In this document: one piece after another, positions 3,698 to 63,235 of the stretch
How the letters are laid out: each line of letters starts with the position of its first letter
Position numbering within the stretch: the stretch's first letter is position 1
NCBI GenBank assembly: GCA_963575745.1
Contig: CAUYUJ010000003.1
Location: 1 to 64,000 of the forward strand
Source: Prorocentrum cordatum
Lineage: Eukaryota
Direction of reading: 5' to 3'
Length of the DNA stretch: 64,000 bases
The notes under the pieces: generated by a model
Databases searched by the model: none
Told to the model about the DNA's origin: nothing
The model's input: the letters and a program-made list of their open reading frames with translations, nothing else
Translations under genes and position numbers: made by a program

Positions 3698-3799
3698 TCT
3701 CGCTGCTTTGCCGCCGCGCTGCCGCCGCCCTTCGTCCTAGACGATTTCGGGCGCCGCTATCTGTTTCACCCGCCGCCTTCGTTGTCACCTGTTGGAGCG

Positions 3800-5159: not shown

Positions 5160-5420
5160 ATTGTTCCGACTCCCGCTCCCGGTCCGATTCCGGCTCCATT
5201 TTCCAACTCCGGCTCTTGGTCCGATTGCGGCTCCAACTCTATCCTACGTTTCCGGCTCCGACTCTGGCGCTTCCGACTCCGATTCCGGTTCCGACCCCCC
5301 CTCCCGTGTCCGACTCCCGCGTTAGTCTCGGAAGCCCGGGCCACTCCAGGTCCGATTGCGGTACTTTTCCCCAAATGGAATTCAAATTGCACGTTTACAA
5401 TTCCGACTTCGGGTCCCGCC
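5160..5420. repeat. Degenerate hexamer repeat (tccgac/tccggc/tccgat)
   Basis: Direct reading of the sequence. Confidence 0.75.
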
Positions 5421-8084: not shown

Positions 8085-8710
8085 CTCCTCCAAGATGGCC
8101 CCAACATGGCCTCCAAGACGGCTAAGATTAAGATGGCCCTGTAGACGGCCCAGGTCGCCCCAAAAGAGCCCAAGATAGCCCCAAGCTGGCTTCCAATATG
8201 GTGCCAAGATGCTGCCAAGATGGTCTTCGAAAACTCGAGATGGTGAAAGGAACGCCCAAGAGGCCCCCCAAACGGCTCAAGAGTCCTCCAAGAAGTCTTC
8301 TAGGTGGGTCCGAAGAGGCCAAATCATTCAATTCCCTTAGGCTTTTGAATGACTTTGGCATTTGCTTCTTTCATGCCTCCGAGATGGTTCCAGAACGGCG
8401 CAAAAGGCTCCCCAAACGGCCCCGAGACGCCCAAGAGGCCTCCCAAAAGCCCAAGATGGGCTCCAAGACGACCCTGAAGTGCTCCAGGAGAGCCTCAAGA
8501 CAACTCAGAAAGGCACCCAGGATGGCTTCCGACGGCGTCAGTCGGGCCAGGAACGCTGCAAGACGGCCAAAGGGCCCCCAAGAAGCCCCAAAGGCTCCCA
8601 AGTGGACCCATGAAGCCCAAAAAGGCCCCCAAGAGGCCTCCGAGAGGCCCCCAGGAAGCAACTTAAGAGGCCCCAGTAATGACCCAAGAAGCTCCCAAGA
8701 GGTCTCCTCA
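8085..8710 (+). repeat. Dispersed low-complexity ccaagatggc/ccaagaggcc repeat family
   Basis: Degenerate ~10-11-nt units. Similar tracts occur at ~4985-5035 and ~32330-32920. Confidence 0.75.
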
Positions 8711-9339
8711 TCCTTCTCCTCATGCTCCTTTTCCTTCCCTCTCCTCATCTTCCGCTTCGTCCCCCACCTGTTCCCCGAAGGGCTTCCACAACGGCTGTGG
8801 GAACGCATGTTTCAATAGCGTTGACCACATAGGCAGATCCTGAAGGGCAGGGGGCGGCGGTGATTCGCCGATTACATTATCTGCGTCCTGTTTCTGCCCC
8901 CTCTCTCCCACTTTCTTTGCAAAGCTGCTCTCTACTATGATATTTGCTCTTCACTTCCATTGTTTAGTCTCTTATTCTGACCGTGGTCGAGACGACACGT
9001 GCACTTGGCCGCAATCAAGATTGCGGAAACCAGGAACCTTCTAGCGCCGGGAACTCTGGACCGGGAGCTGGGAACCGAAAGATCCGGCCGCCCGCCGACA
9101 TCGTCCCGGAAACCAAAACGGGAACCAAAAACACGGAACTGGAAACCCAAGAACCCGGCCGCCTACCCAAACCCTGGCCTGATACCTGAATCGAGTCTTT
9201 CAGTTTCTGCCAGGACCCATTCGGTGCAGGCGCTGATCGAGGAACAGTGCCACATACCATGACGGTGCTACAATACAATGTTCAAGCAGTGTGGACCCCA
9301 ATAAAGAAGTTCAGGCACTGTCGATGTGTGAGATATATG

Positions 9340-12734: not shown

Positions 12735-14052
12735 AGGCCCGAGCTCACTGCCACCCGCCCTGCGTCAGGCTGCTGCTTTAGGAGGGCTGCTGCAGGGGGC
12801 TGCCGGAGGGGTCACTGGAGAGACGCGCCCGCGGGAACCGCATACGCCGCGGGACAGCACCGCAGGGGCAGCTGGAGACCTCCGTTGGAGGGCCCCTAAA
12901 GGATGCCGTCAGAGTGGCCGCTGAAGAAGGCCGCAGGAGGGGTCGCTGGAGGATGCCAGTGGACAACGCCGCTGGAGGAGGCCGCTGGACAACCTCCCTC
13001 CGAGGTTCCATGGCTTCCACCCGCTGCGCTACCCCCCCTCCCCCCCTCCCCAAGCTGCAGGTCCGCTATGACTCGCGTCCGTGGGTGGAGAAAAAGTCAG
13101 CGCAGTGCAAAGGGATGGGCTGGAGGGGCAGGGTGTCAGACATGCCGCGAACGCACCTGCTCCCCTGCTCCCTGCCTTGCTCCCGTGATGTGGGGACACG
13201 CCGCCCCCGCGCCATGCCCTGACGGGCACGAAAGGGCCCCCGAGCGGGGCACGGGCGACTCCGGTGCGTCTCGTCTCGTCTCGTCTCCTCCCCCGGAAGA
13301 GGGCCAAGTGCGACAACGGCGGTCCTCGGCAGGGGTCCATCCTGGCCAGTTTTTTGGGGCGGAGCGAAAGCGGTCGCGACGAGAGGCCTCCCCGGGAGGC
13401 CCAAAGAGGGCGAAGACCGCCATGAAGGGCCGACGTTGCCTCGACTGGAAAACAAAGGCGACCGCGGTGACGTCGAAGAGCACGGTGCAGACGAAGGCGA
13501 CGACGGTTGCCACCAAAAAGCGAACCGTGGTGGAAACGGGTCCTGTACCCTGGGCTTTCCCCCTCGGGCCAATTCACCCCGAGCACTCTTTGACGGCCCC
13601 CGTGCCCTGGGACGGTGCTCGAAGGCCGAAGACGGCTACAAACCACGGGGCCCACTGAAACGATCGGTTGCGCTGACGAGGTGCGCCATTCAGCGCGTAA
13701 AGATCGCATCATGGCCCGAAGCCCGAAGCACGTGTGCGGACGGGGGGGGCGCAGGGGGCACACCGAAATAAAAAGAACAACAATAATCCGCTGGTCCTTC
13801 GGCGTGTGCGAAACAATTCTCCGTTTGAGTGGTCGTCGTCGTCGTTGTCGTCGTCGTCGTCGTCGCCAGTCCCAAAAGAACTTTAAAGACAAAAGAAGAA
13901 AACGTCGTAATTCAGTGGGTTGCCTTCTCTTTATCCTTTCCCTGTTGTGGGGTGGCGGGGGTGGGGTGTGTGGGTGGGTGGGCGGGGGGTTCCTGGGTCA
14001 GAATGCCGCCCCCCCTGGGTCCCACCGGGTCTCTGGGGGGGGGGCGGCGGAG

Positions 14053-14356
14053 TGAAAAGCGAGGGTCAGGAGGGTGTAAGCCGAGACCCCGCTGCTTAGG
14101 ATGACGTCGCAAACGTATCACGGTACCCCATAGCTTATCCCATATTGAAGAGCAAAATGGTTGGCGAGAGACAACATATGATATGAGAGGATGCAAGATC
14201 GAAGAATGTAGATGCCCCCTTTATCCGTTACTCCGGTGCAATAATAACTCGCTGACGCGAGGTAGTCGTATAGGACAACGCTGTCTTGAGCCAGACAGCG
14301 GCGGACGTGGGCAAGACGCTCGCTATGCTCACCTTTGTCCCGTTGGTCGTCCTTCA
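14053..14356 (-). repeat. 3' LTR
   Basis: tgaaaagcgagggtc...ggtcgtccttca, alignable along its length to 30987-31283. Confidence 0.92.
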
Positions 14357-14782
14357 CAATCAGAAGGGGATGAGCCGAGCGTCGAGCCACGTCAGAATTA
14401 AGTAATCCAGTATATAGCAGCAAGATACGGGGTAGAGGATGGCGTTTTTTTTTCGAATGCCCAAGCGAAGCAAGTACAATAACCAAAGCAGACAGAGCCA
14501 GCCGTGGGAAATCTCACCGCGGCCGGCAGCGTATTAGGGTTGGCCATGGCAAACACGACCAACCACGGTTGAAAAGAAGGGTCAACCCACTGCTTCGAGC
14601 CGTGGGTCGACGCAAATTAGAATGGATGCCTGAACAAACCTTCAGGCACCAAAGCGTGCGATGCAAGTATAGAAGAAGCCCGTGTCCGAGCAGATGCTGA
14701 CAAGATGCCCGTGCCCGAGCGCGCGCGGGCTGTCCGTCGGCTGCGCATGTGCAGTATCCGCTAGCCTAGGGCAAGGCTAAAA

Positions 14783-15490
14783 TCATGTCTTGTTTCCTCT
14801 GGATGGTGTATACCGCGTTGCCTCATACTTGAATGGCGGTATTCCGCTCATTGCTTGTTGTCCTAGCTCACGATCAATATAGCGCTTGGTATGACCGTCG
14901 GTCGTCCTATCACGTGTATCACACCACTGTGCGCAATCAGCGGTTCCTCGGTTCATCATATGTTGGATCCAGCTGGTCTGTCTGGACAAGGGGCGTCTGT
15001 GTGGCTTCGTCAGGTCCTTATTCGGTAGGGACTTGCATGCCGACTTGGCGAGGATCTCTTTTACATTTACAGCACCTGTTTCTAAAATGTTCTTGAGTTG
15101 TGTCGGTGTAAATGGCCCGGCCTCCAGCTCGTGTAGCGTCACAATGGTAGGATGCCAGTCTTCCAAGTTATGGGCTGCTGCTGGTGTTTCGGGGGGGCAG
15201 CTGGAACGTGCGCGCAGGCGGTGCGACTTGCAGTGCGCGTCGATCAGGCGTGCTGCTGCTTTGCCGCGTGGCGCGCGCCCGTGCAATGAGAGGTTGGATC
15301 CTCGGGCGCCGTGCCTCTCGACTTCGTCGTCGGCGTCGCCGTTGAGGCGGCGACGACCAGAGTCGCTATGTAGGTCCACTTCTCCTGTCGGAGCCACTGC
15401 GTGATCTATTATTGCATTTGGGCCCTGTTGTAGTGTTGCGGCATTGACTCGTCGCGATCGTGCGTTGGTTGCTCCTTGGACGCGTTGCAA
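14783..15490 (-). pseudogene. Copia-type RNase H remnant
   Basis: VDLHSDSG..CKSHRLRARSS..ETPAAAHNLED..QWCDTRDRTTDGHTK (copia W-x-D-T-x-D-x-x-A-D-x-x-T-K end motif). Confidence 0.8.
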
Positions 15491-15499
15491 GGGAATTTC

Positions 15500-16380
15500 A
15501 CATGCTACTCGCTGCGCCTAAGTGATCAGTTCATATGCTAGCGCACAACGTAGGTGGATGAACATGCCCTATGCATTGTTCGTCGCCTCCTCGTCGGCAT
15601 CAGCGCCAGTGAGCTCTGGGTGTTGCGCGGGGCGAAATGTTTTGATCTATTCATTGTGATCAAGCTGAACGTGGCCGTCCTAGGCCATGGGGTGGCGCGC
15701 GGCGCAGTGTGCGCAGCTGCGTTCATTGAATTTGCATCCCCGTGCTTTTTGTTCTACGCGCTTGACGCATTGCCAACAATGTCCTCGGCTCCTGCCAGAT
15801 CTATATCATCTGCGTGCCTGGCGCTTCGGATGTTGTGGGCCCGTCTCGAACTCCTCGTCTTAGGGAGTGGGTTTGAACCCGGAGCCTTGCGTGTTGATCC
15901 GGTGCTTCAGTGAGCGTGCTCAAGTGGCATATTGGGTGCCTGTGCCCAGGCTCAGACACTGGAAACAATGCCTGGATTCGTCATGATGCGCAAAGCCTGG
16001 CAACGTACGCGACGCCGATGCTGAGCCAGGTGGGAGAGTGAAACATGCCGTGCGTTCGTTCTCCCCTGTTGCCTCAGCATGTTCGCGGTGTGTCAGACCT
16101 TTCAGGGGGGCCTTGTCGATGCCCGTGGGAGCTATGACTCATGACTTCTTGCGCGCGGCCGCGCTTGCAAACGGTCTCTGACTTGCCCGGCGAGCTGTGC
16201 CCGAGAAATTCTTTGCGCCGACGGCGTCGACATCCACGCGGTCCATCTCGCCTTTTTTTGTTCTTCGCGACTTTCCGCGCGCGCGTGTCTCGACGCGGTG
16301 ATGTTCGCGGCGTTCTTGATGTCCCGCATTTTGAAACAGTTATTGTAGTGCCAGGTTTTGAATTATGCGTGTAAGGGTTT
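15500..16380 (-). pseudogene. Copia-type reverse transcriptase remnant
   Basis: IDKAPLKGLTHRE..CFTLPPGS..HCFQCLSLGTGTQYA and ARHADDIDLAG (catalytic YxDD-like motif at 15805-15816). Confidence 0.8.
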
Positions 16381-17399
16381 GTATCGATTGGCCGTGTTTA
16401 ACTGCATCTCTGACTCTTTTGGAAGATTGTCTTCCATGGCGACTGCAGCTCTTCTGGGCGCGGCTAGTGCGTGCGAGCGCACGGTGTTTATCTGGCCGTC
16501 GTGGAGTGGTTTATGTTCTTGCTCGGCCAGAACAATTTTAGCCATGCCAGTAACAAAGCGCAGCTCTACATGCTTACCATGTTCGTCCACATCCAGATCA
16601 CATGCTTCGTCATATTCAGTGGTGCAGGGGGCGAGGCACGTGTCGTCTGTGTTGTCATGGCCACAACCGGCTTCATTTAAGTGTCCTTGCTCTTCACTGG
16701 CCAAAACTACGAACGCATGGTTTGCGGTGCGCATGTCTGCGGGTACCGTGTATGGTTCTAATGTAACTATTCCAATCAAATCCTGTCTTCTTGTGGACCA
16801 AAGCACCGTGCTTCAATGCAATGATGTGCGCTTAGAAGTCCATTTCAGATTCCTCGGTGATACTCGAAGGTCGCCCATCAAGTGCGGCTGGGGCTGAGGC
16901 TGGTTATTCCTCTTGAGCGTGGCCACCCGATGATGTCGAGTCCGCGAGTTCCTCAAACTTGGATGGGTCGTCGTCGACGCCTGCTAAGAGGTTTTGAGGA
17001 TTGGAGGCGTTGGATGATGAGGGCATGTGTGGTTCCAATGGCGTCGTGAAAATTGAAGGCCGCGCCTTCGGATTCGTAGTCGTGAAATCCTGGTGGAGCG
17101 TCGTTGTCGTAGTATACCAGGGTACATCTATCAGCAAATGGTGCCGCTGGTAACCTGTGGATGCTATTCGCCAATCGTACTGTTAGCACGTCTTGAAATT
17201 CGGGAGTCAATTATGATGAGAAGCTGCAAGGCGAAGGATACCTTAGGCAAGACTCTACTCGCCGTGGTTATCTGCAGGTTTCTGTGCTCGGTCGGCAGGT
17301 AGCCGGATGCAAATGCAAGTTTCCCCGCTGGTAGGCTGCGATGAACGCCGGCACTGCGCGCGCGGCCGTGTCTTCGGAACCGAACCCGCGGACGATGAG

Positions 17400-18300
17400 T
17401 ACTACCAAGTACAATGCATGACGTAAGTCGGGATACTGGACAAGGGCCTCGCGACGGCCGACCTGACCTGCGGCCTGACCTCGGTCCGGGTAGTTTCGTG
17501 CGGTGGGGCATGGGCCGTTCCATCCACCCCAGCCGTCCATAGTAGTTGTCGGGGATGGTAGTCAACGAGATTACCAGGCTGATAGGCGTGATGTCCTGCC
17601 GCTGCGGTTTTAGTGCGCGCGGTTCGGTTCGCCATAGCTACTTCCGCGGCCTGTGTTATAGCCGCAGTGCTCACCTCCTTCTATGAGCGTGGGGACACTA
17701 GTGGAATGCTGTGACGTTTGTGTTCCTCTCTCATGGCATGTGTGCTGAGTCTGGGGATGCCGCTGCGTGCCTCAATGGTGGCGGCGTGCTGGCCTCTGGC
17801 ATGGATGCGAAATTCCGCGCCCCTGCCTTCAGGATAACGTTCGCGGCGTTAATGTTTAAGGCGCCTTCTCCGTCTGAGCGCGTCGCAGTCGCTGGGCCGC
17901 GTTGCGTCCAGCGCCGGTGATAAGCGTCTAAGATGGCGTGCGTCGCCTTGTCGGCTATCTGTTGGCCAGCTGCCCTGCGCGTGCATCGGTCGATGATATG
18001 GGGCACGATGTACTGTTCATAATGCATCAGATCGCATTCGGCCTCCTCGTTGAATGTACCTGGGAGGCTGACTGATGGCATGACTGTGTTTCCTGGTTTC
18101 TCCCAAGCTCTTCACTCGGGGCATGAGTTAACCGCGCCCCAGCCCGCCATTAGATATAATCACGCACATCTTCGGCTTCGGTTCGGAGGTGCGGAACCAC
18201 CATTGGTGGAGTTTGCGCAGTTCTTTTCGTGGCAGGGATGTGATCGACACTGCGCATGTTGGGAACTTATTGGGTGTCAAACCTAATCCTGCCGGACAGT
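17400..18300 (-). pseudogene. Integrase remnant (HHCC + DDE core)
   Basis: KELRKLHQWW..SCPE*RAWEKPG..FNEEAECDLMHY..HIIDRCTR..RSDGEGAL; downstream YQPGNLVDY..GW.GP. Confidence 0.85.
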
Positions 18301-19059
18301 CTTGCTCGTGGCCGTGCTTCGGCCTGGGGCGGGAGCGGATGCGATGCGGCGCCACCTTGTTCGCGCCCGCGCCGTCCTGCGACGCGCGGTGGGTCGGTGG
18401 AGCTGCCGGCGCGAGAAGTGCTAGCGCTACTGCCGTCAGGTCCGTGGGCACCTCGTGTCATATCGTAGGTGCTTGCGCCCGCAGTCGGGTCTCCAGGGTT
18501 TCTACGCGTAAGTAGAGGTGCGCGTGGCCGCGCATCGCTCCGCGGCCTCTGTCGTGCAGGCGGCAGTTCTGGAGCAGGCCCTGCTGGTGCAGATGCATCA
18601 TCGAACAGTTCGTCTGCCGGTGCTGGTGCCGCTGCTGACGCAGCGGCTGCTGGTGCCAATGCGCCGTCCGCTGGCGCTAGTGCAGCTAGCGGGGCTCGCC
18701 GGAAGTTAACTGGTGGTTGCCGAGTTCTCGTGGATCAAAATTTGCCAGGTGTTCGCATGTAGCCCCGCTTGTTTTTGCTATTGTCCTTTTTGCAGCTTGG
18801 ACATCCTCAGTCGTGGGGCGCTTTGTCGAACCACCGACATAGTCGTGGATGGCGGTTGTGCCGTGATGAGTTCATGCGTGCGTTATCAACGCCTGCTGGA
18901 CAACCCAGCCCGCTCGACGGTGGTCGGCGGATTGGCCCATGAACTTCTCGAGGTAAGGTGGGATCGTTAAGATCGTAACCGGCACTGTTTATCACCAGAG
19001 TGTTTGCCTATTTCCGATATGCGAATGGGTTTCAAGCTCGAGCAGAAGGGCCCCGTGCA

Positions 19060-19716
19060 ATCTTGACCGCACCATCGATCAAGGACCGCACGTTCGGTGT
19101 ATATCGGGCCGCCTGTGCTAATTCTCGGTTGCGTGCCTGGGCATGTTTGTGATGGCCAGATCATCCTTCGTTTTCGAAAAGGGTTAAGAACTGCTCTGTG
19201 GTTAAACATAATGATGGCGGGTTTTCTGATAAGTGCGCCGTGGGGGTCTCGTAGCCCTGTCGAGTATTAGTCAATGACCTTGCGATTGGCCAGTGTCGAC
19301 CATGTAATAATCTCATCTGCCCACGTGCCAACCAGCTGTTCCCGAAAGGATAGGCGTGTTTGGTCGTCTTGCGTGGCGGCGATCTTGCAGCATAGCGTGA
19401 TGTGGGGAAGGTCTCCCTTGTGGTGTTCATACAAAGTGTCGCGGTTCATCTATGCGTTGCAGTGTGGGTGGGTGGGGTGGGGGGCGGGGTTGGGCGGGGG
19501 GTGGGGTGGGGGGGGGGGCAAGCCTGTGGATCTGCAGTTGGGTTGAAATATTTGAACTGTGACGAAGCAGTTGTGCTGATCGTGTTTCACAGCTTGCTGT
19601 GCCCATGGGTTTTAGGTTTCCTAATCAAGATTGATGAATATGTCAAGGCTACCTCTAGAAATTAATATTCTTGTGAGAGCCAATTGGGATATGCCTCCCG
19701 TGCCCCCATGGCACGG
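19060..19716 (-). pseudogene. C5 cytosine-methyltransferase-like domain remnant inside the LTR element
   Basis: Motif I-like PCHGGTGGISQLALTRILISRGSLD (19716-19640). Motif IV-like QIFQPNCRSTG (QPNC 19534-19545). Motif VI-like SFREQLVGTW. Motif VIII-like VID*YSTGLRD..IRKP. Motif X-like ELAQAARYTP. Confidence 0.6.
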
Positions 19717-21559
19717 GGTAGGTATAATCGAAAATACTTCGGCGTGCATGTCCGCCACGATAGGTAGTGTTAAGGAGAGAGTATCGTCTTCTGATTGAAG
19801 CTACTGTTGGAACGTCGGAATATAACGTGGCACGCCCCAGGCCTCTGAGGTCATCGCCGCAGTCGTCAGTGCCGTCTGCGAGCTTTTTGGGTATCTTCTT
19901 TGGCTTGATGCCGGCTTCCTTACAACATTTTAACTTTTCTGCTTGTTTCAGCCGGGCGTCAGTTGGTAATGCTGCGTGTGTTTGCAGCGCGTCATCCTCA
20001 AGTGCAGAGAACGGTGCAATGTTTGGGAGGCCCCCGTTGGGCCCGATCGAGAGGGGGAGAGAGATCGACAATCTACGATGAACGTAACTCGTTTTCTCAG
20101 GCATGTCGTTCGCCCGCGGCCGAGCATGGCATAGGCCGCGGGTTCCCAAATGCAATCGTGCACGTGCGTTGCCAACGCCTGGTGGCGACGGCGCGTTCCA
20201 ATCGCATCCTGTCGGTTGGTATTTTACTCGGATATCTTGGGCCGCCAATTTGGCGCTAGATCCAGGGTGACGCGACGGACTGCGTCGTCCCGTCGGCCCG
20301 CTTGCATTCGATTGTACATGGTTCTTCGCGTTCATGTCTGCGCGGGTGAACGCGCCTAGCTATGTGTGCTTATTGTCCTCTCTGTGGACATGTGTTTGTC
20401 CAGTTTGTCCAACGCTTGTGCGATCAGGGATTCAATAGTTTTGTCGCCACTCGGCGTGTTGTTGTTCGTGTCCATGCTAACGCAGTTGGTGTTCAGTTGC
20501 TGATGTACACGTGCATGTCCCACTGGTTTATCGGGGTCCTTGGGCGCGAGGTACATATCTGTATATATGAGCCGCTCGGTATCTGACTGCCGCGGTCGCA
20601 CTTGATGCCGAAGTGGCAGAGGCGCGCCCGGATATCTCTGTGGTCTAAACTCACATGAACTTCTCATTGGTCCCAATTTCCAGGAATAGCCCGGAGGTCC
20701 ATCATGCTAATTACTTGCGCCCTGAGGGCGCGCGCTTTGGTTGGGGAGTTCCGCATTCCCTCGCAATGCGGCCCGGCGCGCCCCCCCGGCAGTCGCGCGC
20801 GCCAGTCGGCGGGCGTGGTCGCCAAGAGCAGTGCGTAATCTCCCGCCAACGAGCCGCCTAAGTATTGGGTTTCCATGTGGCGGCAGACATCAGAATATCC
20901 TCTGTGACAAGCGCTCTAGAATGAAAGGGCTCATCGTCAATTTTATAGCGAGTGGCCGTGCGCTCTGGTACTGCATAGCACGCGTTCGCGCGCTTGGCCT
21001 CGTCGGAATCGGGCCCGGCTGCCCCCGTCAAGGAGCGTCGACGCGGGGCGCGGAGCTCGGGGGATCGCTGCTCGTAAACGCCCGCCCCCCCCATCGCGGC
21101 TCGCGCCGCCCTGCTCTGCGGCATTGCGCTGCGACGAGCATAGGTCGCAGATGAAACGCCTGCGGCAAGTCCCCCCTTCCGAGCGGAACAGCGCCCCACT
21201 ACTCTCTGGGCGTTTGCGCCCTGGACACGTGGGTGGAAGCGGTGCGTCAGCGCATCCAGCTCCCACTTCTCCACATATGTCTTCGCCTTAATATGGATTC
21301 CTGCAAGCGGCCCGCGGGTCATCTCACGGGGGCGGTCCGAACGATGCCAACGGTCCAGCGCTGTGCTGACCGTCGTATTCGCGGCGTCGTTTACCGCCCT
21401 ATCCATGGAAACGATGCAGGTTCTCGTCGTTGCATGCGCCAGTGGCCTGGCTTGCCTGGGACACCTGTCCGCGACTATCTTTTGTCTCGGTACCATGGCG
21501 GGCGCATCCGCCGTCGCTGACGCGCGCGATGGCGCTTTCCAGCGCGGCGCTGCTAAAGC

Positions 21560-22050
21560 CGGGAATGGCCGCCCCAGAATTGAAATGCGGGGTGGCCGGG
21601 TGGCTCGATGGCGTCGTCTCAAGCATGAGCACCTTCGCGCCTCTTCCCAGCATCGCCATGTGGGCGGCGCTGCCAGGACATATGATGCGCTCGCGGCCTG
21701 CCTGCAATATCAAGATCGCCCTCTGCTGCTGCGCGGAGGTCTGGCCGGGGATGGCGGGCGCGCCCTCGACAGAACCCTCGGCGACGTTGCCGACGAAGCG
21801 ACCCATCCTGGTAACTGCAGGCTTGTCATGATTATGTACTGGCACGCGATAGATAAGGCCCCAAGCTCGCGGCACGCTACTGCTCCGCTCCCGACGCCGT
21901 CGACGTGCAACGACAGTTAATGGTCCTCGATGCGCGGCGCGTGTCTGCGCTGTCTCTGGCTGTCAAACTCTCTGACGGCGCTTATGCCACTGGTGCTGAT
22001 GTTGCCCAAACAATGCTTCCACGTAAGGGTTCGTGCTTGGCCTATCCATC
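21560..22050 (-). pseudogene. Retropepsin-like aspartic protease remnant
   Basis: LGNISTSGISAVREF..LHVDGVGSGAVAC (flap)..AEGSVEGAPAIPG..RAILILQAG..CPG..LETTPSSHP. Confidence 0.65.
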
Positions 22051-22244
22051 TCGGGGCCATGTGCCGCCCGTCGCCGTCTGTCGCCGCCGCTCGTCTCGGG
22101 GCCGCGGGCGGCTGTCGCCGTCCGCGCCGCCCGTCGCCGCCGTCGCCGCCGCCGTCGCCGCCGCCGTCGCCGCGCCGTCGCAGCCGACGTCGCCGCCGCG
22201 CACAGCGCTGCTTGCACCGCGTATATAATGGGAATAATACTAGA

Positions 22245-22282
22245 ATTAGTAGTCGTAGTAGTAGTAGTAGTAGTAGTAGTAA

Positions 22283-22313
<31 letters not shown>

Positions 22314-22323
22314 CGTAGTAGTC

Positions 22324-22362
<39 letters not shown>

Positions 22363-22476
22363 ATCGTAGTCGTAGTCGTAGTAGTAGTAGTGGTAGTAGT
22401 AGTAGTAGTAGTAGTAGTCGTAGTCGTAGTACTCGTCGTGGTAGTGGTTGAAGTAGTAGAAGTAGTAGTCGTAGTA

Positions 22477-22528
<52 letters not shown>

Positions 22529-22728
22529 CAGTAGTAGTAGTATCAGTAGTAGTAGTGGTAGTGGTAGTAGTAGTAGGTGGCATAGTAGTAGTGGTAGTAG
22601 TCGTAGCAATTGTAGTAGTAGTACCGTGGCAGTAGTTGGAGTAGTCGTAGTAGGAGTAGTCGTAGTAGTCATAGAAGAAGTAGTAGTGATAGTACTAGTG
22701 GTAGTAGTAGTAGTCGTAGTAGTAGTAA

Positions 22729-22762
<34 letters not shown>

Positions 22763-23060
22763 CGTAGTAGTCGTAGTAGTAGTAGTACTCGTGGCAGAAA
22801 TTGCAATACTGATTTTACTAGCCGTACCGAGAGTACAAATACTATTGGTAGGAGTAGTAGTAGTCGTAGAAGTTGCGGTCGTAGTAGTAGCAGTAGTACG
22901 AGTAGCAGTATGAGTTGTAGTAGTAGGAATCGTACGCAGTAGATGCAGTAGTAGTTGAGAAGTAACAATAGCGATAGATTCGTGGTAGTCAGTGGTAGTA
23001 GGAATGGTCCCAGTCTTGGTCGTAGTAGGAACAGTAGTCGTAGTAGTCGTAGTAGTAGTC

Positions 23061-23103
<43 letters not shown>

Positions 23104-23106
23104 CAA

Positions 23107-23161
<55 letters not shown>

Positions 23162-23222
23162 CGTAGAAGTCTTCGTCGTCGTAGTAGTCATGGTAGTAGT
23201 AGTAAAAGTAATAGCAGTAGTC

Positions 23223-23272
<50 letters not shown>

Positions 23273-23352
23273 CGTAGTAGCAGTAGTAGTAGTAGTGGTA
23301 GTAGTAGTAGTAGTAGTAGTCGTAGTAGTAGTAATAGTAGTAGTAATAGTAA

Positions 23353-23394
<42 letters not shown>

Positions 23395-23458
23395 AAGTAG
23401 TACTAGTAATCGAATGGGTGGTAGTAGTAGTACTGGTAAGGAGGTAGCACTCGTGGTC

Positions 23459-23500
<42 letters not shown>

Positions 23501-23533
23501 ATCGTCGTCGTCGTAGCTTCAGAAGTAGTAGTC

Positions 23534-23590
<57 letters not shown>

Positions 23591-23621
23591 CTAGTAGTAG
23601 TAGTAGTAGTAGTAGTAGTAG

Positions 23622-23670
<49 letters not shown>

Positions 23671-23686
23671 CGTAGTAGTAGTAGTA

Positions 23687-23721
<35 letters not shown>

Positions 23722-23751
23722 AAACGTGTTATTATTAGTATTAGTAATAGT

Positions 23752-23843
<92 letters not shown>

Positions 23844-23896
23844 ATAGTAGTAGTAGTAGAAATAATACTAGGAGTAGTAGTCGTCGTAGTAGTAGC

Positions 23897-23933
<37 letters not shown>

Positions 23934-24050
23934 ATAATAGTAGTAGTGGAAGTAGTGGTAGTAGTAGTACTACTACTACGACTACTAACCGAAATATTAA
24001 TGAAAGTAATCGTAGGTAGTAGGAGTAGTAGTAATAATAATAATAATAAT
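22245..24050. repeat. ~1.8-kb (TAG)n/(CTA)n microsatellite
   Basis: Direct reading. Source of the poly-S/V/T/L ORFs. Confidence 0.98.
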
Positions 24051-24759
24051 GAATGTTTCTGGGTCCACGCTGGCTAACCTTTGAGCCAATGTCTTAAAGC
24101 AAGCTCAATTCTTCGGGGATCTGCCTCTTGTGCGTGCCCGATGCGCACGCATGCTGGATGCCAGTCGGCGTCGCTATAGGAGCCTAAGCCACCTATGGTG
24201 GACGGCCCATTTGTTCCTCGTGAGGCGTAGGGTTGCAGGGCCCCAGTTCAAAAGGGGCGACTGCAACTCCTCATGGGTGCTGGGCTCCTTCTCTACAGCC
24301 CAGCTGGTATAACTGACGTTGTTGAGCGTCTCTGGCAGGAGGTCCTGGACCTGGCCAGTCGCCGATGCATGTCTCGTGGCAACCTGCAACATGAACGCCG
24401 TCGTCTGATCATGCATGGATGGCCCCTTCCGTCTCCGCGGCTTGGCCCACGTCGACGTCGTAGCTGCGGGCGTGGGATCCAGTCGGAGAGTCGACGCGGC
24501 CCCCGCGGCTCGCGACCGAGCTGGGCCGGGTGCCTCGCGCCCGTTGCCGCCTGTTGTTGTTCGAAGCGGTCCAGCCGGCATTGGCGGCGTCGGTATGGCA
24601 TTGCTCGCGGCCGTGCTATTGGCGGGGGTCACTGCTAGGACGTCATCCAGCCTCCTGCGCAGGTCCGGGATCTCCTGGGCCTGCTGGGTTGACGCAGCTG
24701 CTGAGGTGCCTGGCGCGTCGATGTGGCCCGCGTGCGTTTACTCCGCCACGATAATGCCC

Positions 24760-24897
24760 TGTCCACGGCAGATGTCGCATGGTGCCACGACAACGGCCCC
24801 CGCACTGCCACTCGCGACGCACGTGCACGGCGTCCGCATTGCAGCCCCCGCACCTTCCCGCGGGATGCGAAGGCTTCCAGACACACTGCGTAGTTCG
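24760..24897 (-). pseudogene. Degenerate RING-H2 finger
   Basis: TNYAVCLEAFASRGKVRGLQCGRRARAS then APCDICRG in another frame. Spacing fits C-x2-C-LEAF..L-x-CGH-x-FH..C..C-x2-C, and the Y/R/R substitutions are single transitions from C/H/H codons. Confidence 0.6.
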
Positions 24898-26239
24898 TGG
24901 ACGAGGTATTTGAGACAACTGGTGGGTCTGTGTAAGGATGTGTCCGCCATTGGCGCTGCAACGTTGTCTCGGATGGCCCGTATGGTGATGGTGGAGGTCC
25001 CTCGCGGGTAGCTGACCTCGGCGTGGACCTCGCAGTAGGCGCGTGGCCGCGCTGGGCGTTGTTGATAATGCGATGCATGCGCCTCGCTGCGCGCTCACGC
25101 GCCGCCCGCCTTGCGTCCTCCACCGCCTGCATGTTCGCCTGCGTCGTCGGATGAATGTCGAATGTCGTGCAGGCACGGAGGAAGGTGACCCACGGGTGCA
25201 AGCACCTCAAGGGCAACTGACTGCGCCTCTGTATCGGGTCACCTGGTGGAGGATGGTAGCGAAGCAATTATACGCTGTCTGGTACGCGCGCCGCTTGAAG
25301 ACGATCGAATTCGTTTGCCATTCTTCGTCGCCTAGTTCTGGGTCAGTTGTCCAAAGAAATCATGGGCGTGCCAGTGACCTCCGCGTGGTGCTCGGGAAGG
25401 AGTGGATGGTCTATTGGCGGTGCGGCCAACGCTTGAAGCGGCGGGAAATTTAGGCGTGCTGCGAAGGCAGGGATGAACGGCAACCGATCAGGATGATCTG
25501 CGGAGGGGCTCGCATCTGGAACCCATTCCCAAGGCGGATCCCAACTCGTTCTGTCGGTTACGTCCACGCCCAGCAGGCGCATCTCAGACATTGCTGCCTG
25601 GTGCTGCTGTTGCACAACCACTGCTGCTCAAGAGCCGATTGCCTGTGTCCAGGCTGTTGTGACGGTGGTGCCATGATCGGAGAGCCCATGGGCTGCCAGT
25701 GGCCTGGCTCTGCTGCCGCGACTTGCCGGGGGGCGTCGCGGCCCTTGCTGCAGCCGCCAAGTCCTTAGCTCGAGCGCCGAGGCTATCCGCTGCATCAAGT
25801 CCTCATGGCTCGTCCCCAGAGTCTGCTGCCCACCGGGCGTGTCCGCCCCTGAGGCGATCGGCATGCCTCCTAGGGCTGTCGCCCAGGGGTCCTGCTGCGT
25901 GAATATGTCGGACAGCGTAGAGATGTCGTATGATGGCTGAGACGGTGGTGTCATTCACGATGCCGACAACCCGGTATCCGTTGGCAAGATAGCCGGTGGT
26001 CCAGCGTTCGTTGGGGCGTTGGTCCCGGCAGGCGCCCCCGCATCCACCATGAGGCACGCGCGCGAGTCACTGCGTGGAGGTCCCATCGGTCGTCTGAGCA
26101 CCGATGGCGTCGGCGGTCTGAGGGGCGGACCAGCCGTGGAGGAGGTCGGCTGCCTTCAATGGAGTCTGGGCCCCTGTGCGCGAGCCGAAGTACTGGGGAT
26201 CGTGCCAGACCCCCCCCCCCTACATGCTGCACCCTTTGA

Positions 26240-26945
26240 TCGGCCAAGTGGATAATATCGCGGTTCGGTATGATTCCATCCCAGCTCTCGGTCATGATGG
26301 CATCGTTTTCCGAGCGCCCAATCTTGGTGCCATCGCGCGTCATAATTGGCATGGGCATTTAAATCGACTTCTGAATCTGCGCGCAGGCCAGATTTGATCC
26401 GCGGGCCCCGCGGCAAATATTGACAACCATGAGCATATTGGCGGGACCAGCGCCCAAATTTGGGATTGCGCTGTTGCAGGCAGGAGAAATCATTGCGAAA
26501 TCTGTTCAAGGTAAACCCACTTGTGGTGCCATGGGTGATAAACTTGGGGTCGCCATCTTGTCCCATCGATGTCGCTCGCTTGTGCGACGGCTCTAGGCGC
26601 AGGAGATGCCGGGCCTCGCGTGTCCGATCGCGGCCTGGATCCACAACATGTTTTTTTCCTGTGATGGTCGATGTATATTTCAACTGGAAGCCGCCCTTCT
26701 TGGCGCCCGACAGGCCCGTCATGTTTCTGGTCTTCAGTGGCGACCGTGCTTGATAGTCGCTTGCGTGGCCGCGCATCCACTTCATAACTTCCACTGCGCC
26801 CCTGATGTTGTTTACGGCGTCGTTGGCCATGGCCCAGCTGTAGCACGTGTCCCAAGTCACGCACGTCCTCTCATAGTTCGGGTCGATGGCGCCGTCATTG
26901 CACGGCCGGCGCCTGCAAGTGGTGGGCCGCCGCTCCGACGTCGCG
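26240..26945 (-). pseudogene. Tpt1/KptA RNA 2'-phosphotransferase (ADP-ribosyltransferase fold) remnant inside the LTR element
   Basis: Ordered motifs KKGGFQL, MLWIQAAIGHA (26650-26615), PKFITHGTT (~26550-26523), SRQYAHGCQYLPRGPRIKSGLRADSEV and RDGTKIGRSENDAIMTESWDGIIP. They match the Tpt1 pattern KxRFxL..WIRAxQGHS..HGT..RxHIH..ISGMR..DGIxFYRSxNGVILTxGxxGxIP. Confidence 0.8.
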
Positions 26946-29299
26946 GTCATCTCGTTGCGGGCGGGCTCTGGGAATAACAGGACGTACTCCTCCTTCGTGT
27001 TCGCCTCGAGTAGGGAAATTTCCTCCTCGTTCTTCAATGGTCGCGTTGCAAGGGGGCTGTCGCGCATGAGCTGCATGTGCCTTGCGTGGGCGTCGCTCAG
27101 ATCGTGAAGAATACATTGAAAGCTCGCGATATCATCGCTCACGGGCGTGTCCGCCCAGTTCGGAACCGCGGCGGCAGACAGGCTGGCCTTCGGTTGATCT
27201 GCTGCTGGCGTCGGTGGCGCCGCCCTTGCTGGTGGTGCTAATGATGCCGGTGATGAAGCCGGTGGCGCTCCTATGTACTTGGAGGTTGCGCTCGTCCAAA
27301 GCGTAATCTGGGGGCCGACCGGCTCTGGTTGAGGTATGCCGGCGTCTTGGCTGCCCGCTTCCTTCCCTGCGCGGCGTCCATGATCGCTCGGCCGAGGCGA
27401 GCCGGCGCCCTGGCTGCTCGGGACTTCCTTCTCTGCGCGGCGCCCGAGGTCGCGCGAGACAGCGTCTCCTGCGTGAAGGCGGCAAGTCGCGCGTCATATT
27501 CAACCTGCGCGTGGCCTCTGAATCATGGGAGCTGAATCAGCTGGCGGTGAAGCTCTTTGCCCGTGGCCGAGCCGGTTCTGTTTCTTCCTGCGTAGCTGTC
27601 CAGGCCGGCGGCGCGTCGGGCAGGGGCCCGATCTGCGCGATGCATTTGGCCTGATTGTGATGCTTCTGAGCGCGCGGCCACAGGTTGCTTCGGAAGAGCC
27701 GTGGGAACGTCCTGGTCGCTGGCGGCGCGCTCTGATATGCTGGCTGAACGCCGTCGTCGTTTTGTTGCTTGCGTCCAACATGTGACTCCGCCAGCGTCGC
27801 CTCTTCTTCTGGGGTGAGTTTCTCATTGCCTTGAGCCGCGGTGTAGTTATTGGATTGCCCATGCCATCTGGCGCAGTAATAGGGACATGCCCTTCTTCTG
27901 GCTCAAGTTCTCCTGGCGGGGTCGATTCCTCGTCGGATTCCGAAAGGCTCGCCGCCTGTTCTGGGCGAAGCTCCTTTCCTGGCGTGCGTCTTTCGGGGTG
28001 TCCTGGGCGTGGCCGCCCGCGTCGTGGGCGGGCCCGCCCTTGTCCTGGGCGCGTCCGCCCTCGTCTGCCGGCTCGGCGGGTGCGAGTGGCGACTCCTCCT
28101 CGCCCCCTTCTGCCTCCTCCTCGCCTGGCGATGATTGCGGAGGGGGCGCCCGAGGGAGGGGCGGCGCTGGAACTGCCGACGGTCTGTTTCGTCGTGTTCA
28201 GCTCCCGATGTCGAGGAGCGCTCGCGTCGCTGTCCTCGCCCGTCGGAGCGTCGCCGCGCGTGGCGCGCCAGTCCCGCTGGTAGGCTTTAAGACGCTGGTT
28301 CTCGGGATGCAGCCTCCGGCTCTACTTGGCGTCCGTGATCTGCGCATCGCTCCGGGGAAAATGCCCGGCCTCGGCGTCGGCCTTGCCCCCGAGGCCGTCG
28401 CCGTGATCAGGGCGCCGAGGCGTGGCGTCGCGACGCGGGCTGCGCGATGGCCGTTTGATCTGGCGCCCGGGGCATTGCTTGCTGGGGCGAGGGCCCCCGC
28501 GCATGCGGCATGTCTTGCGGTCTTCAAAGAGGCCGCGCTTCCGCCGCTGTCTCCGCGGCGCGGCGACGAGACGTCTTGATGATGTGGCCAGAGTCGCCCC
28601 GAAGCACGTTCATTTGAGACCGCCGATGGCGAGTTTCTGGCTCGCTCCAGCCCTTGTCGAGATGCCGCTGCATGTTCGCCCCGAGAAAAGCACGCCCCTT
28701 CCTTGAACCGTGGCCCATGCTCGACGAGGGGCCTGCGGCTCGAGAGTGACTGCGGCCTCGGCTGACGTTGCCCGGGGCCAGGCGCGACCCTGCGGCTCCT
28801 GCTCCCGAACTGCGGCAGCGGCGACTGCTGCCCTGCCCTTGTCAGGGCCCGTTTAGTCGGACCTGTGCCGATGGGGGCTTGGCGGCCCCGCGCCAGGAAC
28901 GCAGCGGCGCCCGATTGGCCACGGAGGCCGAGGCCAATGGCCGTCGGCGCTGGAAGTTGGGTGCGATGGCCCTGCTCGCGTCCGAATTGGAGCAGTTGTA
29001 CTCTTCTTCAGCGGCAGGAGCGGTCTCAACATCAGACATGCAATCATAATCAGCATTTTGAACGTGCCCGTGCTCGTCTTCATTTTACGCGTGTCCGTGC
29101 CGTGGGAATCCCGCGAATACCTCGAACGGCGCATCGAATGGCTCCTCGAAGCCGTCGTACATGTACTCGGTGTAGCGTTCGACCGCCATGGCTGCCTCGG
29201 CGTGCCTAGCAATCAGGGGCTAGGTGGTTCTAGATTGCACCTGGGAGGGATGATCGAGACCCGGGAAATCAACGTATCCGAATACGTCGTCCTCCTGTT

Positions 29300-30600
29300 G
29301 CTCTGAGCGGATCCATCCCCTCTTCTTTTGTCCATGGGACGCTGTGCCTGATTTTTGTCGTTACCGCGAGAATTGCATGTCATGCGTTGGCCATTATTGT
29401 CCATGGGGTTTAGCTTGCGCCCCTTGCCTCCCCTCGCGGTGTTTCCGCGACCTTTACCTCTGCCTTTGCCACCGAAAATCAGCTCCTCGAAGTAGTGGTC
29501 GGTTAGACTGGCAAATGAAGTGGCCACCCCTTTTTCGTGTGCAAACCCCGGGTCGGTCTACCACCTTACCTGCGCCACGACCATTATTTGACCCCCCTCT
29601 ATGTAAGCCGTCTCCACCTTCTTTTAGCATGCTGATCGCCTAGATATAAGTAGTGTGCTGGAGTGTCGCCGCCAGCAGGCAGATCTGACCAGCCAGTGGC
29701 TTTAACACCTGTTGATGAGCAGGTGTCGGTGTCTGTCTGAGAGTCGAAGGGGTCGTCATCGTGTTGGCCTGACGAACCCCGAAGGGCCGTCTCTGCGCGT
29801 GGTGTGTAGCTGGCAGCTGCTGGCCAACCGTTCTTTGAACCAGAGGTCTTGGCGCTGCCAATCTCTTGGCCTAAGAAGTGTCGTGTGTACGGTAGGCTCT
29901 TGATGGCCCCAGATCCTGCCAGACGTTGCCGCCGGCATATCGCTTGTTTCGGCATGGTAGGTGCTAGCGTTGCGGCCACCGAGAATGCCCCCGATGTTTC
30001 CAGGAACGCGCCCAGCTAGGTGTCCATAGCTGCGCATGCGCTCCAGTAGTTGATCGTGCTGTTGTTGGGTACGGGGCGCTTGGTAGTTTGCTGGTTGCAG
30101 TAATGGTGGCGCTCGGGGGGTGCCTACTCCCAGAGCGCGGAACAATAAGAACGTCAGGATCGGGAAGTTGGGCATGTTGAAGCCGGCCAAGTCCGCCTCG
30201 AGTCTGGCCATCTCGAATCGGGCCAAAGCTGAATCGATGCGTTCGCCCTTATCGACCCTGATGTCGACAAGGGTGGTTCTCGAGGTGAACTGCCGCTCAA
30301 CGTCGAGGCTTGCGAACTTGGTACTAAGTAGGCACATGAAGTTTGTAATCCCGTCGGTGCGTTTACCGTGTGAATTTACACCGTAATTGATGATGGTCGA
30401 CCGCACGCTCGCGGCCAGGGTTCTGCCTAGACCCCCGATACTGCGCTGGAGCGCGGCGGCCTGTTGTGGTGGAGTCATGGCTCCAGCTATGGCGTTGAGC
30501 CATGCATGTACTTCGCGAGCGAACTCGCGGAATGGTGCGTTGTCTGCGGAGTCCCAGTGGGGGCCCCGAATGCGTGTTTCATCTTTTCCTCCTCGCATGT
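29300..30600 (-). pseudogene. Gag remnant
   Basis: PFREFAREVHAW..PQQAAALQRSIGGLGRTLA..ERIDSALARFEMAR..LERMRSYGHL; DTDTCSS; QHAKRRWRR; GKG-rich linker and decayed knuckle LNPMDNNGQRMTC. Confidence 0.8.
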
Positions 30601-30960
30601 ATCCCGCTGCCAAACCAAGGGACACCCATACAATTCCCAAACTAGGAACGTTGACATAGTGCATGTTCATACTGTAGTTGATGATGTCAAGGTCTGTGCG
30701 TTTGGTGACTGGCGTATCCGTCAGGTCACGTATACGGGTATGGTCTGACGTGGCCGTCAGTTTGTGGATGGGTGTAAGGGTTAAACTTGCACGTGGCGTG
30801 TGAGCCACGCGGTGGGGAGCTGGAGGAACAAGATACTAGGTTACCAGTTGGGTGAAGGGTATTGGGAATGTAATGGCTGATAGCTGGCGCAATTGGAAGT
30901 CCCACTGTGCCGTGGTAAGTCGTTTTGTACATCACACATGATGTAATAACCAGCCACGAA

Positions 30961-30986
30961 CATATGATACCAACTTAATTACCAAG
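30961..30986 (-). promoter_or_regulatory. Possible primer-binding site
   Basis: After the 5' LTR the minus strand reads cttggtaattaagtTGGTATCAtatg. TGGTATCA matches the first 8 nt of the common initiator-Met PBS but lies 14 nt from the LTR. Confidence 0.4.
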
Positions 30987-31283
30987 TGAAAAAGCGAAGG
31001 TCGGAAGGGTGCAAGCCGGAACCCCGCTGCTTAGGATGACGTCGTAGACGTACCACGGTATCCCATAGCTTATCCTAAGAGCAAAACGGAAGGCAAGAGA
31101 CAAAATAATATGGGAGGATGCACCATCGAAGAATGTGAACGTGTCTTTTATCCGTTACTCTGATGCAATAGTACCTCGCTGACGCGAGGTGGTCGTATAG
31201 TACACCGGTGTCTTGAGCCAGACAGCGGCGGACGTGGGCAAGACGCTCGCTATGCTCACCTTTGCCCCTGTGGTCTTCCTTCA
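30987..31283 (-). repeat. 5' LTR
   Basis: tgaaaaagcgaaggtc...ggtcttccttca. Diverged copy of 14053-14356 with a 56-bp identical core. Confidence 0.92.
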
Positions 31284-32329
31284 AAGTGGCGGCGCCAGCG
31301 GGGTTCCTCGGGGGTCCTGGCGGGGCTTGGGTGTCCCGGGTCAAAATGCCGCCCCCCTGGGGTCCTGGGGGGTCCTGGGAGGGGGGGGTCCTGGAGGAGG
31401 TGGAGGGGGTTGTTGGGGTGGGGATCCCCGGTCAGCGGGGGCCCCCGGGAAGGTCCCGCCTTCAAGGTCTGTGGCGCCAGTCGCAAGACCTTCGCAATAA
31501 AAAGGATCAGAAGAATAATCAGACCAACAAGTATGAACAACATGAGCATCATATTCATCCGCATGAGCAAGTCACACTTCATGATGACAGTAAAAGTGCA
31601 AATGCGAATGGCAAGAAGCAGAAGACATGTGACAGGGGTGCGTGCTCCAGGGCCCCGGTATCCACCTCTCCCCAGCCCCCCCCCCCTCGCCAACGCCTGG
31701 AGTGTTCTGGGTCATGACTCGGGCCTCTGGCGGCCGGTCGGGACGACCCTGGCACCCCCGGAAAGCTCTCGACGAGGCGCAGCTGCTGGAGAGCATCCCG
31801 ATGCAAGGAACCATCGAAAGTCGGCGGCGAGCCCAGGGGGGAGGTGAGGAGGCCTGCCCCTCTCGCCTCCCCGTTGGGCTCGCCACCGAAACGAGCAGCC
31901 CCTTCGAGAGCCAACGAGGGTGTCCGACGCCCCCGCACGAAGACGGCGGCGATGGAGTGGGGCCAGGCGCGGGGCCGCAAAACGGCAGCGGGCGGCGATG
32001 GAGGACGAGGGCCGCGATGAGAGTGGGAGAAGGGACGCGAAGGACGGCGAGGACTTCCCGGCGTGACGCGTATCCCTACGAATCCCTATGTTTGGCATCA
32101 CCTTATCTCGCTGCCGATCTTAAATGTTCCCACATCTTCTGAGGGCACACCCCTGAGATTGCCCTCGCCTCTGGGCTTGCCGGTCTTGGGGATGGGGATC
32201 CGCCGACCCCCGCTTGCCGGGGGTGAAAAGGCGTGTGAAACATTCGGCTGTTCTCCTCCCCCTTTCCCCCTCTCCTGGGGCCCAACATGCTTGTAAGGGG
32301 GGGCAGAGCTTGTCAAAGCACACCCGGGG

Positions 32330-42409: not shown

Positions 42410-43125
42410 TAGCATGCTACGAGGTGCAATCCATGTGGCGTGGACTAAAGGGTGCAATTCATACTGCCGGGTTTGAAGTTGTCAGCACCACTTCTCGCGC
42501 AATTTTCCCACCCACCCACCCGCAACTCGGTTTGCAAAACCCATGCGGCAGCAATTGCGATGGGTGTTTGGTGTTGGCAGGTGCATCTCTGCGGCCGCGC
42601 CAGCCCGCGCATGCTCGCGCGCACAGCGGCCAGCTAGTTTGGCGCGACCGACGTGGCCGCGGTGGCGCTGACCGCTGGGCACTAGCACGGTATCCTGGCA
42701 ACGTCGACAACGGTAGACACGATGATGATAGTAGCGATGCTGGTGGCGATGGTGACAACGACGACGGCAAGGCCAGTGACGGCGCAAATGCTGATCACGC
42801 CGGCGACGATGAAGACCCCCTTGCGTCGGTGATGAAGTTTTGGAAGGAGTTTGACCTGCGCGCGCCGCCGACGCGCGATAGTGGTCCGCGCTGTATTATT
42901 TTACACGGGCCGTGCCTCCCCCCAGCACGCGCGCAAGGGCGTTCGAATGATTTCGACGTGCTGCGCGGGAGGCCTGTTTGGCTGAATTTACTAAACATGT
43001 GGAACAACCGATGGTTCGCTTAAGAATTCGCAAGAGCGCGAGCGCAGGCTTTCTCTTTTATGAACTGATGTTGTCAAACCGTGTGAATGTATATGTTTTC
43101 GGGGCACTCGACTTTGAATGCTTCA
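42410..43125 (+). repeat. Dispersed repeat copy homologous to ~59860-60585
   Basis: Shared cccacccacccacccgcaac, tgcatctctgcggccgcgccagc, ggcgcgaccgac..ggtggcgctgaccgct and gcgtcggtgatgaag blocks in the same order. Confidence 0.9.

Positions 43126-63204: not shown

Positions 63205-63235
<31 letters not shown>

Follow-up and report, generated by a model that had tools for sequence, protein, structure and literature searches.

A dUTPase and a chromodomain are among the extra domains carried by long terminal repeat (LTR) retrotransposons. Enzymatic acquisitions by such elements are rare (PMC9289625), the closest analogue that we found being the reported fixation of a cellular eraser of an RNA mark, the AlkB m6A RNA demethylase, by large Ty3/gypsy elements of orchids. 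The term Tpt1 is absent from that paper. For Tpt1 enzymes themselves, both the two-step removal of internal RNA 2'-phosphates and the one-step ADP-ribose capping of 5'-phosphate ends have been established, and the enzymes are widespread in organisms without the ligase that makes their only proven substrate (PMC6182162). Their catalytic tetrad consists, in CthTpt1, of Arg18, His19, Arg68, and Arg121 (PMC6333775). Here, we describe a stretch of 64,000 nucleotides from Prorocentrum cordatum (contig CAUYUJ010000003.1, positions 1 to 64,000; below, the window), which quite likely holds an old, dead copy (14051 to 31283, minus strand; approximately 17.2 kb) of a very large retrotransposon of the LTR type. 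The genes of the element would be in a copia-like order, and its Gag-Pol polyprotein would include a captured eukaryote-type Tpt1/TRPT1 domain and a RING finger between the nucleocapsid knuckle and a protease-like region, with the enzyme acting on the nucleic acid of the element. As in orchids, a large LTR retrotransposon would thus have fixed a cellular eraser of an RNA mark; unlike in orchids, where AlkB is reported as an additional open reading frame (ORF) of angiosperm elements (PMC9289625), the domain lies in frame within a polyprotein of marine-algal elements, and enzyme, mark, and superfamily are all different.

The Tpt1/KptA-like domain spans approximately positions 26245 to 26971 of the minus strand, close to the interval 26240 to 26945 given in a preliminary description of this DNA, and, judged by its sequence relatives, this segment does encode such a domain. 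The five signature blocks named in that description are all present and colinear on the minus strand: a three-frame translation places KKGGFQL at 26681 to 26701, WIQAAIGHA at 26617 to 26643, and THGTT at 26522 to 26536, followed by SRQYAH (26429 to 26446) with KSGLRADSEV (26366 to 26395) and by GRSENDAIMTESWDGIIP (26266 to 26319). A sixth block, corresponding to the N-lobe, was found upstream of these (CRRRP at 26903 to 26917 and YSWAMAND at 26819 to 26842). The domain is free of introns, as had been stated. The blocks are spread over two frames: blocks 1, 3, and 4, together with the N-lobe remnant, occupy the last 270 codons of a 445-codon stop-to-stop frame (26159 to 27493, minus strand), and another frame holds blocks 2 and 5. 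Reading through the domain requires three frameshifts (in an A7 run at 26651 to 26657, near 26578 to 26595, and near 26344 to 26365) and the bypass of an in-frame TAG (26593 to 26595), a position at which relatives show Glu, Gly, or Asp. With three frame changes and a stop codon, no uninterrupted coding sequence is left, and the window copy is unable to make a Tpt1 enzyme. Because contigs of sequencing run X1 cover 26152 to 27127 at a depth of only 0 to 1.4 (depth not being copy number), reads provide no independent confirmation of the frameshifts; the sequencing-run search listed one DNA run, sharing 0.31 of the words, and no RNA run.

The relatives of the 445-codon frame identify the domain. 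An exhaustive phmmer search with its translation against 1.84 billion representative proteins yielded four matches at an E value of ≤0.001, three of which (P0121, E = 3.3e-06; P0122, 2.1e-05; P0124, 1.9e-04) align across query residues 304 to 378 with 37 to 45% identity. These three, as well as P0125, pass the gathering score of the Tpt1 profile PF01885 (26 bits), with 28.3, 51.4, 47.7, and 45.9 bits, respectively, and the partial relatives P0126 (25.8 bits) and P0127 (25.1 bits) fall just under it. The fourth match, P0123, was discarded as a Tpt1 relative, being an unrelated repeat protein; with three of the four passing PF01885, a chance resemblance to Tpt1 was rejected. When the relatives were aligned back to the window by tblastn, colinear matches were obtained at 26971 to 26369, 26646 to 26581, and 26343 to 26245. 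In the ESM Atlas, P0122 sits among eukaryotic Tpt1 clusters (29 of 30 matches in that set), and a further protein search with P0122 returned five proteins, two of them labelled Pyramimonas sp. in EukProt. The decayed window sequence itself was less productive: its unbroken pieces had no Tpt1 match in the PDB by phmmer and stayed at noise level (E = 39 and 76) with a narrow hidden Markov model built from 98 E. coli-like KptA proteins and run with filters off, and a word-indexed protein search with the 445-residue frame found no relative among 8000 candidates of 244 to 779 residues.

Intact relatives of the element were found among metagenome contigs, a scan of which with an alignment of four relatives gave 33 pattern matches, three of them confirmed (L002, L003, and L004). 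The most informative, L002, is an 8780-bp marine metagenome contig with a stop-free frame of 2653 codons (820 to 8778, open at the contig end), encoding, in this order, a gag-like region, a CCHC pattern (CDICGSTQHFRREC), a full-length Tpt1 domain, a RING finger, and a protease-like region. Residues 1387 to 1620 match positions 5 to 177 of the 177 positions of PF01885 (61.8 bits, E = 1.1e-16), residues 2130 to 2183 form a RING-H2 finger (zf-RING_11, 33.8 bits; zf-RING_2, 29.5 bits), and the protease-like region reads LMDIGSN and, later, AIMGRRQM, a retropepsin-like pattern read by eye. The contig opens, ahead of the long frame, with the final 230 codons of a different frame, a pol tail that stops shortly before the repeat and the gag part. 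The ESM Atlas cluster closest to it, with a score of 0.95 and 206 shared features, bears the name "Copia protein family protein", which we take as a lead only; phmmer with this tail against the PDB returned nothing relevant, and its AlphaFold model, built from a two-sequence alignment, was unusable (predicted local distance difference test [pLDDT] score of 32). L004 contributes a frame of 495 codons, open at both ends, with an intact Tpt1 domain, and L003 is frameshifted. No longer relatives emerged from scans of viral contigs with pol-tail, Tpt1, and gag queries; scans of genome contigs gave none with the pol-tail query and a single 629-bp contig (L005) with the gag query.

The tetrad positions were located by aligning the window domain and its relatives with KptA of E. 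coli, and L002 and L004 keep all four (LRHKP, QKHRL, and GRQFIHG), as do the partial proteins P0126 and P0122 within their coverage. In the window, the corresponding stretches read CRRRP, where Arg stands in place of His, KKGGF, where Gly stands in place of Arg, and SRQYAH, where Arg is kept, so that two of the four residues have been replaced; the earlier remark that KxR reads KGG here, with GGC one base away from CGC, was accurate. Between L002 and L004, the domain has a dN of 0.107 and a dS of 0.917 (Nei-Gojobori, 234 codons), corresponding to a dN/dS ratio of 0.116, and the 220 codons upstream of it have a dN of 0.231, a dS of 0.345, and a ratio of 0.67. The Tpt1 domain of the intact relatives is under strong purifying selection, from which we conclude that active elements make use of it.

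The structures closest to the L002 domain are those of mammalian enzymes. By sequence, it matches tRNA 2'-phosphotransferase 1 in the human and mouse crystal structures (7yw3_A, E = 6.7e-13; 7yw2_A, E = 4.7e-11), and archaeal KptA structures reach E values of only 0.4 to 0.7. An AlphaFold model (44-row alignment, mean pLDDT of 66.9) was used for a fold search, in which all 20 listed matches under an E value of 0.002 were Tpt1/KptA structures, the best being 7yw2 (E = 3.7e-08; template modeling [TM] scores of 0.46 and 0.53). The two-lobe fold, with a winged-helix RNA lobe and an NAD+ lobe, is accordingly predicted for L002, the one relative that was modeled. Taken together with the dN/dS ratio, these matches by sequence and fold point to a eukaryotic gene of the TRPT1 type that was captured and then kept by selection, and the Tpt1/KptA identity first proposed for the window is borne out by its relatives, through the profile, the structures, and the fold. 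In common with TRPT1/Tpt1 proteins (7yw2 from mouse, 7yw3 from human; PF01885), the element domain has the predicted two-lobe fold, the Arg-His-Arg-Arg tetrad in intact relatives, the GH[ST], HGT, and R..[IV]H motifs, and an LPGD..I.SG.R stretch shared with the mammalian enzymes. It differs from them in forming part of a polyprotein longer than 2650 residues, where they are free proteins of 180 to 250 residues, in family-specific insertions in the RNA lobe (of about 11 and 23 residues) and around the fourth arginine, and, for the window copy, in being broken and without two of the four catalytic residues.

Comparison of the L002 frames with the window by tblastn showed that the domain is part of a much larger remnant: ten colinear segments on the minus strand run from 30661 down to 14786. 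The gag-like part (L002 residues 199 to 471) corresponds to 30661 to 29840 with 54% identity and falls in an unbroken open frame of 359 codons (29759 to 30835). It is followed by a conserved polyprotein segment (residues 955 to 1090, window 28588 to 28202, 30% identity, E = 3.6e-05), the Tpt1 domain (two segments; residues 1494 to 1594, window 26661 to 26360, 43 to 49%), and the linker behind it (residues 1705 to 2010, window 26122 to 25235, 29%, E = 9.5e-12). Next come a RING-finger remnant scattered over two frames (two segments; residues 2102 to 2254, window 24979 to 24528, 31 to 35%; VCLEAF at 24869 to 24886) and a protease-like remnant, again over two frames (two segments; residues 2530 to 2653, window 21910 to 21600, 44 to 50%). 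The last of the colinear segments is the C-terminal end of pol (residues 2 to 186 of the pol-tail frame, window 15331 to 14786, 56%), to which the copia-named ESM Atlas lead also applies and which, from its pattern, may be RNase H-like. Approximately 2.4 kb upstream of this pol end lies a possible integrase-core remnant (17734 to 18111, minus strand).

All of these segments are enclosed by a pair of direct repeats, the 5' LTR (30985 to 31283) and 3' LTR (14051 to 14356), both read on the minus strand, starting with TGAAGG, ending with TTTTCACT, and 84.7% alike across 307 columns. Directly behind the 5' repeat is a primer-binding-site-like sequence (30961 to 30984, minus strand), TGGTAATTAAGTTGGTATCATATG, which we presume to resemble the copia-type tRNA-iMet site (TGGTATCA...). 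Its start, TGG (TGGTA...), fits priming by a complete tRNA through its CCA end, and the idea of priming from tRNA halves, which the preliminary description raised with reference to some copia elements, is therefore not favored. The placement of the Tpt1 domain between gag and protease is supported by the colinearity with the single frame of L002 and by the position between two direct repeats, with the qualification that the protease is recognized by position and motif pattern only. From the frameshifts, the stop codon, the decayed RING and pol parts, and LTRs that are only 85% alike, we conclude that the window copy is an old fossil.

The architecture thus gives good support to an LTR retrotransposon with a copia-like order, in which the reverse transcriptase (RT) itself was not detected. 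Features in common with Ty1/copia elements (Pseudoviridae) are the terminal direct repeats beginning with TG, the TGG following the 5' repeat, a Gag with a CCHC pattern, the order of protease-like, integrase-like, and pol-tail parts, and the "Copia protein" cluster. In contrast to those elements, the one described here is very large (about 17 kb, with more than 2650 residues ahead of integrase), carries Tpt1 and RING as additional domains, has a gag and a protease that Pfam does not recognize and a D-I-G-S motif, and was not found to encode an RT. The copia label, drawn from domain order, the weak integrase-like match, and the ESM Atlas lead, is tentative.

Several observations weigh against our interpretation. 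For the window domain, the profile comparison that the preliminary description had called for succeeded through three database relatives and failed on the window itself, with none of the three unbroken pieces matching PF01885. Conservation of the catalytic residues likewise holds for L002 and L004 and is breached by P0125, which has Ile at the fourth tetrad position. In L002, the CCHC pattern is below threshold (zf-CCHC, E = 0.014, 15.9 bits, cut-off of 20.8), the gag-like core belongs to no Pfam family, nor does its unbroken counterpart in the window, and the protease-like region has D-I-G-S in place of D-S/T-G and no Pfam match; the window remnant of this region has no Pfam match either. At the borders of the element, no matching 5-bp flanks indicative of a target-site duplication and no purine run (polypurine tract) before the 3' repeat were found. 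An RT was not detected by Pfam in 120 long ORFs of the window, in 125 minus-strand pieces (E ≤ 0.05), or in 58 pieces (E ≤ 10), and the one RT candidate piece (16366 to 16812) had no PDB match by phmmer; stops occur throughout all frames of the pol region (21600 to 15331), and contigs L002 to L005 do not help here, as the related contigs end before pol. Evidence for integrase consists of one match to Pfam rve (E = 0.11, 13.3 bits, cut-off of 32.6), the sole signal of a retroelement family in the Pfam scans of the window, and this piece, too, was without a PDB match by phmmer.

How might a retrotransposon use such an enzyme? The preliminary description proposed primer processing, RNA repair, or capping of cDNA ends. 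As a part of the Gag-Pol polyprotein, Tpt1 would be expected to enter the virus-like particle by coassembly with the genomic RNA and its tRNA primer, where it could use NAD+ to act on the element's own nucleic acid. Green-lineage cells use a tRNA ligase that leaves 2'-phosphate marks. The chemistry that we prefer is the removal of internal RNA 2'-phosphates of this kind, which would be left behind when a plant- or fungal-type tRNA ligase reseals cut RNA and which would hinder copying by RT. Conservation of the full tetrad, including the arginines tied to the second reaction step, and the presence of such a ligase in the green lineage led us to favor this canonical reaction, tentatively and with the reservation that it probably has somewhat less than an even chance of being right. 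We give close to an even chance to the proposition that giant copia-like retrotransposons of marine green algae form a lineage in which Tpt1 and a RING ligase have been domesticated to work within Gag-Pol.

The strongest competitor, which we regard as possible and rather unlikely, concerns the reaction and not the target. Under this alternative, the Tpt1 of the element would be a one-step ADP-ribosyltransferase that caps the 5'-phosphate ends of cDNA or RNA, for instance once the tRNA primer has been removed, and thereby shields them from 5'-phosphate-dependent exonucleases or from end joining into dead-end circles. Consistent with capping, the closest solved relatives are the mammalian structures 7yw2 and 7yw3, a subset of Tpt1 enzymes caps RNA or DNA 5'-phosphates (PMC6182162), and 5'-end ADP-ribosylation is the reported outcome in mammals and bacteria (PMC12678800). 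However, the tetrad is conserved in full, including the two arginines linked to the second, phosphotransfer step (PMC6333775), which would be superfluous in an enzyme dedicated to capping.

The capture of two cellular domains side by side in one linker region of the polyprotein might instead bring to mind a counterdefense module, in which Tpt1 and RING are directed at the host and modify or mark host RNA or restriction proteins. We consider this improbable, as no host target is known and the known actions of Tpt1 are on nucleic-acid phosphates and not on proteins (PMC6182162, PMC6333775, PMC12678800). Still less credible is the proposal that Tpt1 is a mere passenger, a fragment of a host gene captured without a role and carried along by chance: in its favor are the dead state of the window copy, the tetrad arginine missing from P0125, and the frameshift in L003, but a dN/dS ratio of 0.116 over 234 codons at a dS of 0.92, the full-length profile match of L002, the tetrads kept in L002 and L004, and the same position of Tpt1 in lineages that share only 54% identity in gag all speak against it. 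A stray pseudogene or processed copy of host TRPT1, unrelated to the surrounding element, would account for the decay and the missing introns and can nonetheless be dismissed almost entirely, since it is contradicted by the independent relative L002, in which Tpt1 is in frame with gag-like and protease-like regions, and by the homology of the window flanks on both sides to those of L002; nor, given the equivalent placement in L002, L004, and the window, is the domain a one-off processed host mRNA, which the preliminary description had named among the findings that would overturn it.

Returning to a Tpt1 that serves the element, we found no description of a Tpt1-bearing retrotransposon in the literature, as judged by titles and the beginnings of abstracts; subscription journals, transposable-element databases such as Repbase, and supplementary tables lay outside the search, and a prior annotation is therefore possible. 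Two papers name both PF01885 and retrotransposons, and in each the profile appears only in unrelated tables. Each of the known additions (dUTPase, chromodomain, and AlkB) pointed to a step in the interaction between host and element. With a complete Tpt1 maintained by purifying selection within the polyprotein that forms its particles, such a retroelement offers a defined setting in which to look for a substrate, candidates being the genomic RNA, the tRNA primer, and cDNA ends. If our interpretation is correct, Tpt1 would have a natural substrate outside tRNA splicing, and RNA 2'-phosphate marks or 5'-phospho-ADP-ribose caps would matter for the replication of retroelements or their restriction by the host, suggesting a layer of RNA damage or RNA marking in the control of algal transposons. 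The window copy, only a fossil, has its value as a pointer to this element family.

A few further features of the element family were noted. Approximately 220 residues directly upstream of Tpt1 (L002, 4315 to 4977; also in L003, L004, and P0126) are conserved, with the pattern NP.YDP..DG..RYR...Y...CVARC, match no Pfam family, and may belong with Tpt1 to a single mature protein. An 11-nucleotide word, GGGCAACCTGC, occurs in 10 exact copies on the coding strand of L002 (2140 to 7538), usually within TGC[GA]GGGCAACCTGC, and not once on the opposite strand; it is also present in L003. Nine of the copies in L002 encode A-G-Q-P-A, and one (at 7056) lies in another frame. These AGQPA copies always use CAA and CCT, codons that the frame chooses in 50% and 34% of cases, respectively. 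In total, L002 has 13 AG[QN]PA sites (three of them AGNPA), where composition predicts an AGQP count of 0.08. Most are located in the linkers that separate the gag-like, CCHC, Tpt1, RING, and protease-like parts, and one, at residue 2559, lies inside the protease-like region. The motif, which is absent from the window copy, may mark protease cut sites or constitute a signal at the nucleic-acid level. As for L005, this contig, from a metagenome-assembled genome labelled Gammaproteobacteria, is 78% identical to residues 199 to 330 of the L002 polyprotein, i.e., the first 132 residues of the gag query, and probably represents eukaryotic sequence that contaminates a bacterial bin.

Within the window element, the gag segment at 30300 to 30543 reached a summed contig depth of 232 in run X1, compared with approximately 1 to 17 elsewhere on 24200 to 31500 (again, depth and not copy number), and 81 of the 140 aligned contigs were less than 90% alike, which suggests that the organism of that run has a large and diverged family of repeats to which the gag part belongs. 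Between the RING and protease-like remnants, the polyprotein is interrupted by approximately 2.2 kb of trinucleotide-type simple repeat (21920 to 24100), which several frames read without a stop as stretches of T, S, V, L, and Y; L002 shows nothing corresponding to it between its residues 2254 and 2530.

Across the window as a whole, which has a G+C content of 60%, the long ORFs hold no recognizable cellular gene, and Pfam assigned no family at an E value of ≤0.01 to the 120 ORFs of at least 90 codons and normal composition, apart from two weak matches at chance level. Further dispersed or tandem repeats, unrelated to the element, are found at 42477 to 43118 and 59902 to 60582 (74%) and at 61274 to 62394 and 62683 to 63829 (87% identity), and a tandem array at 6149 to 7303 comprises approximately 13 copies of a 77-bp unit that are 62 to 92% alike.

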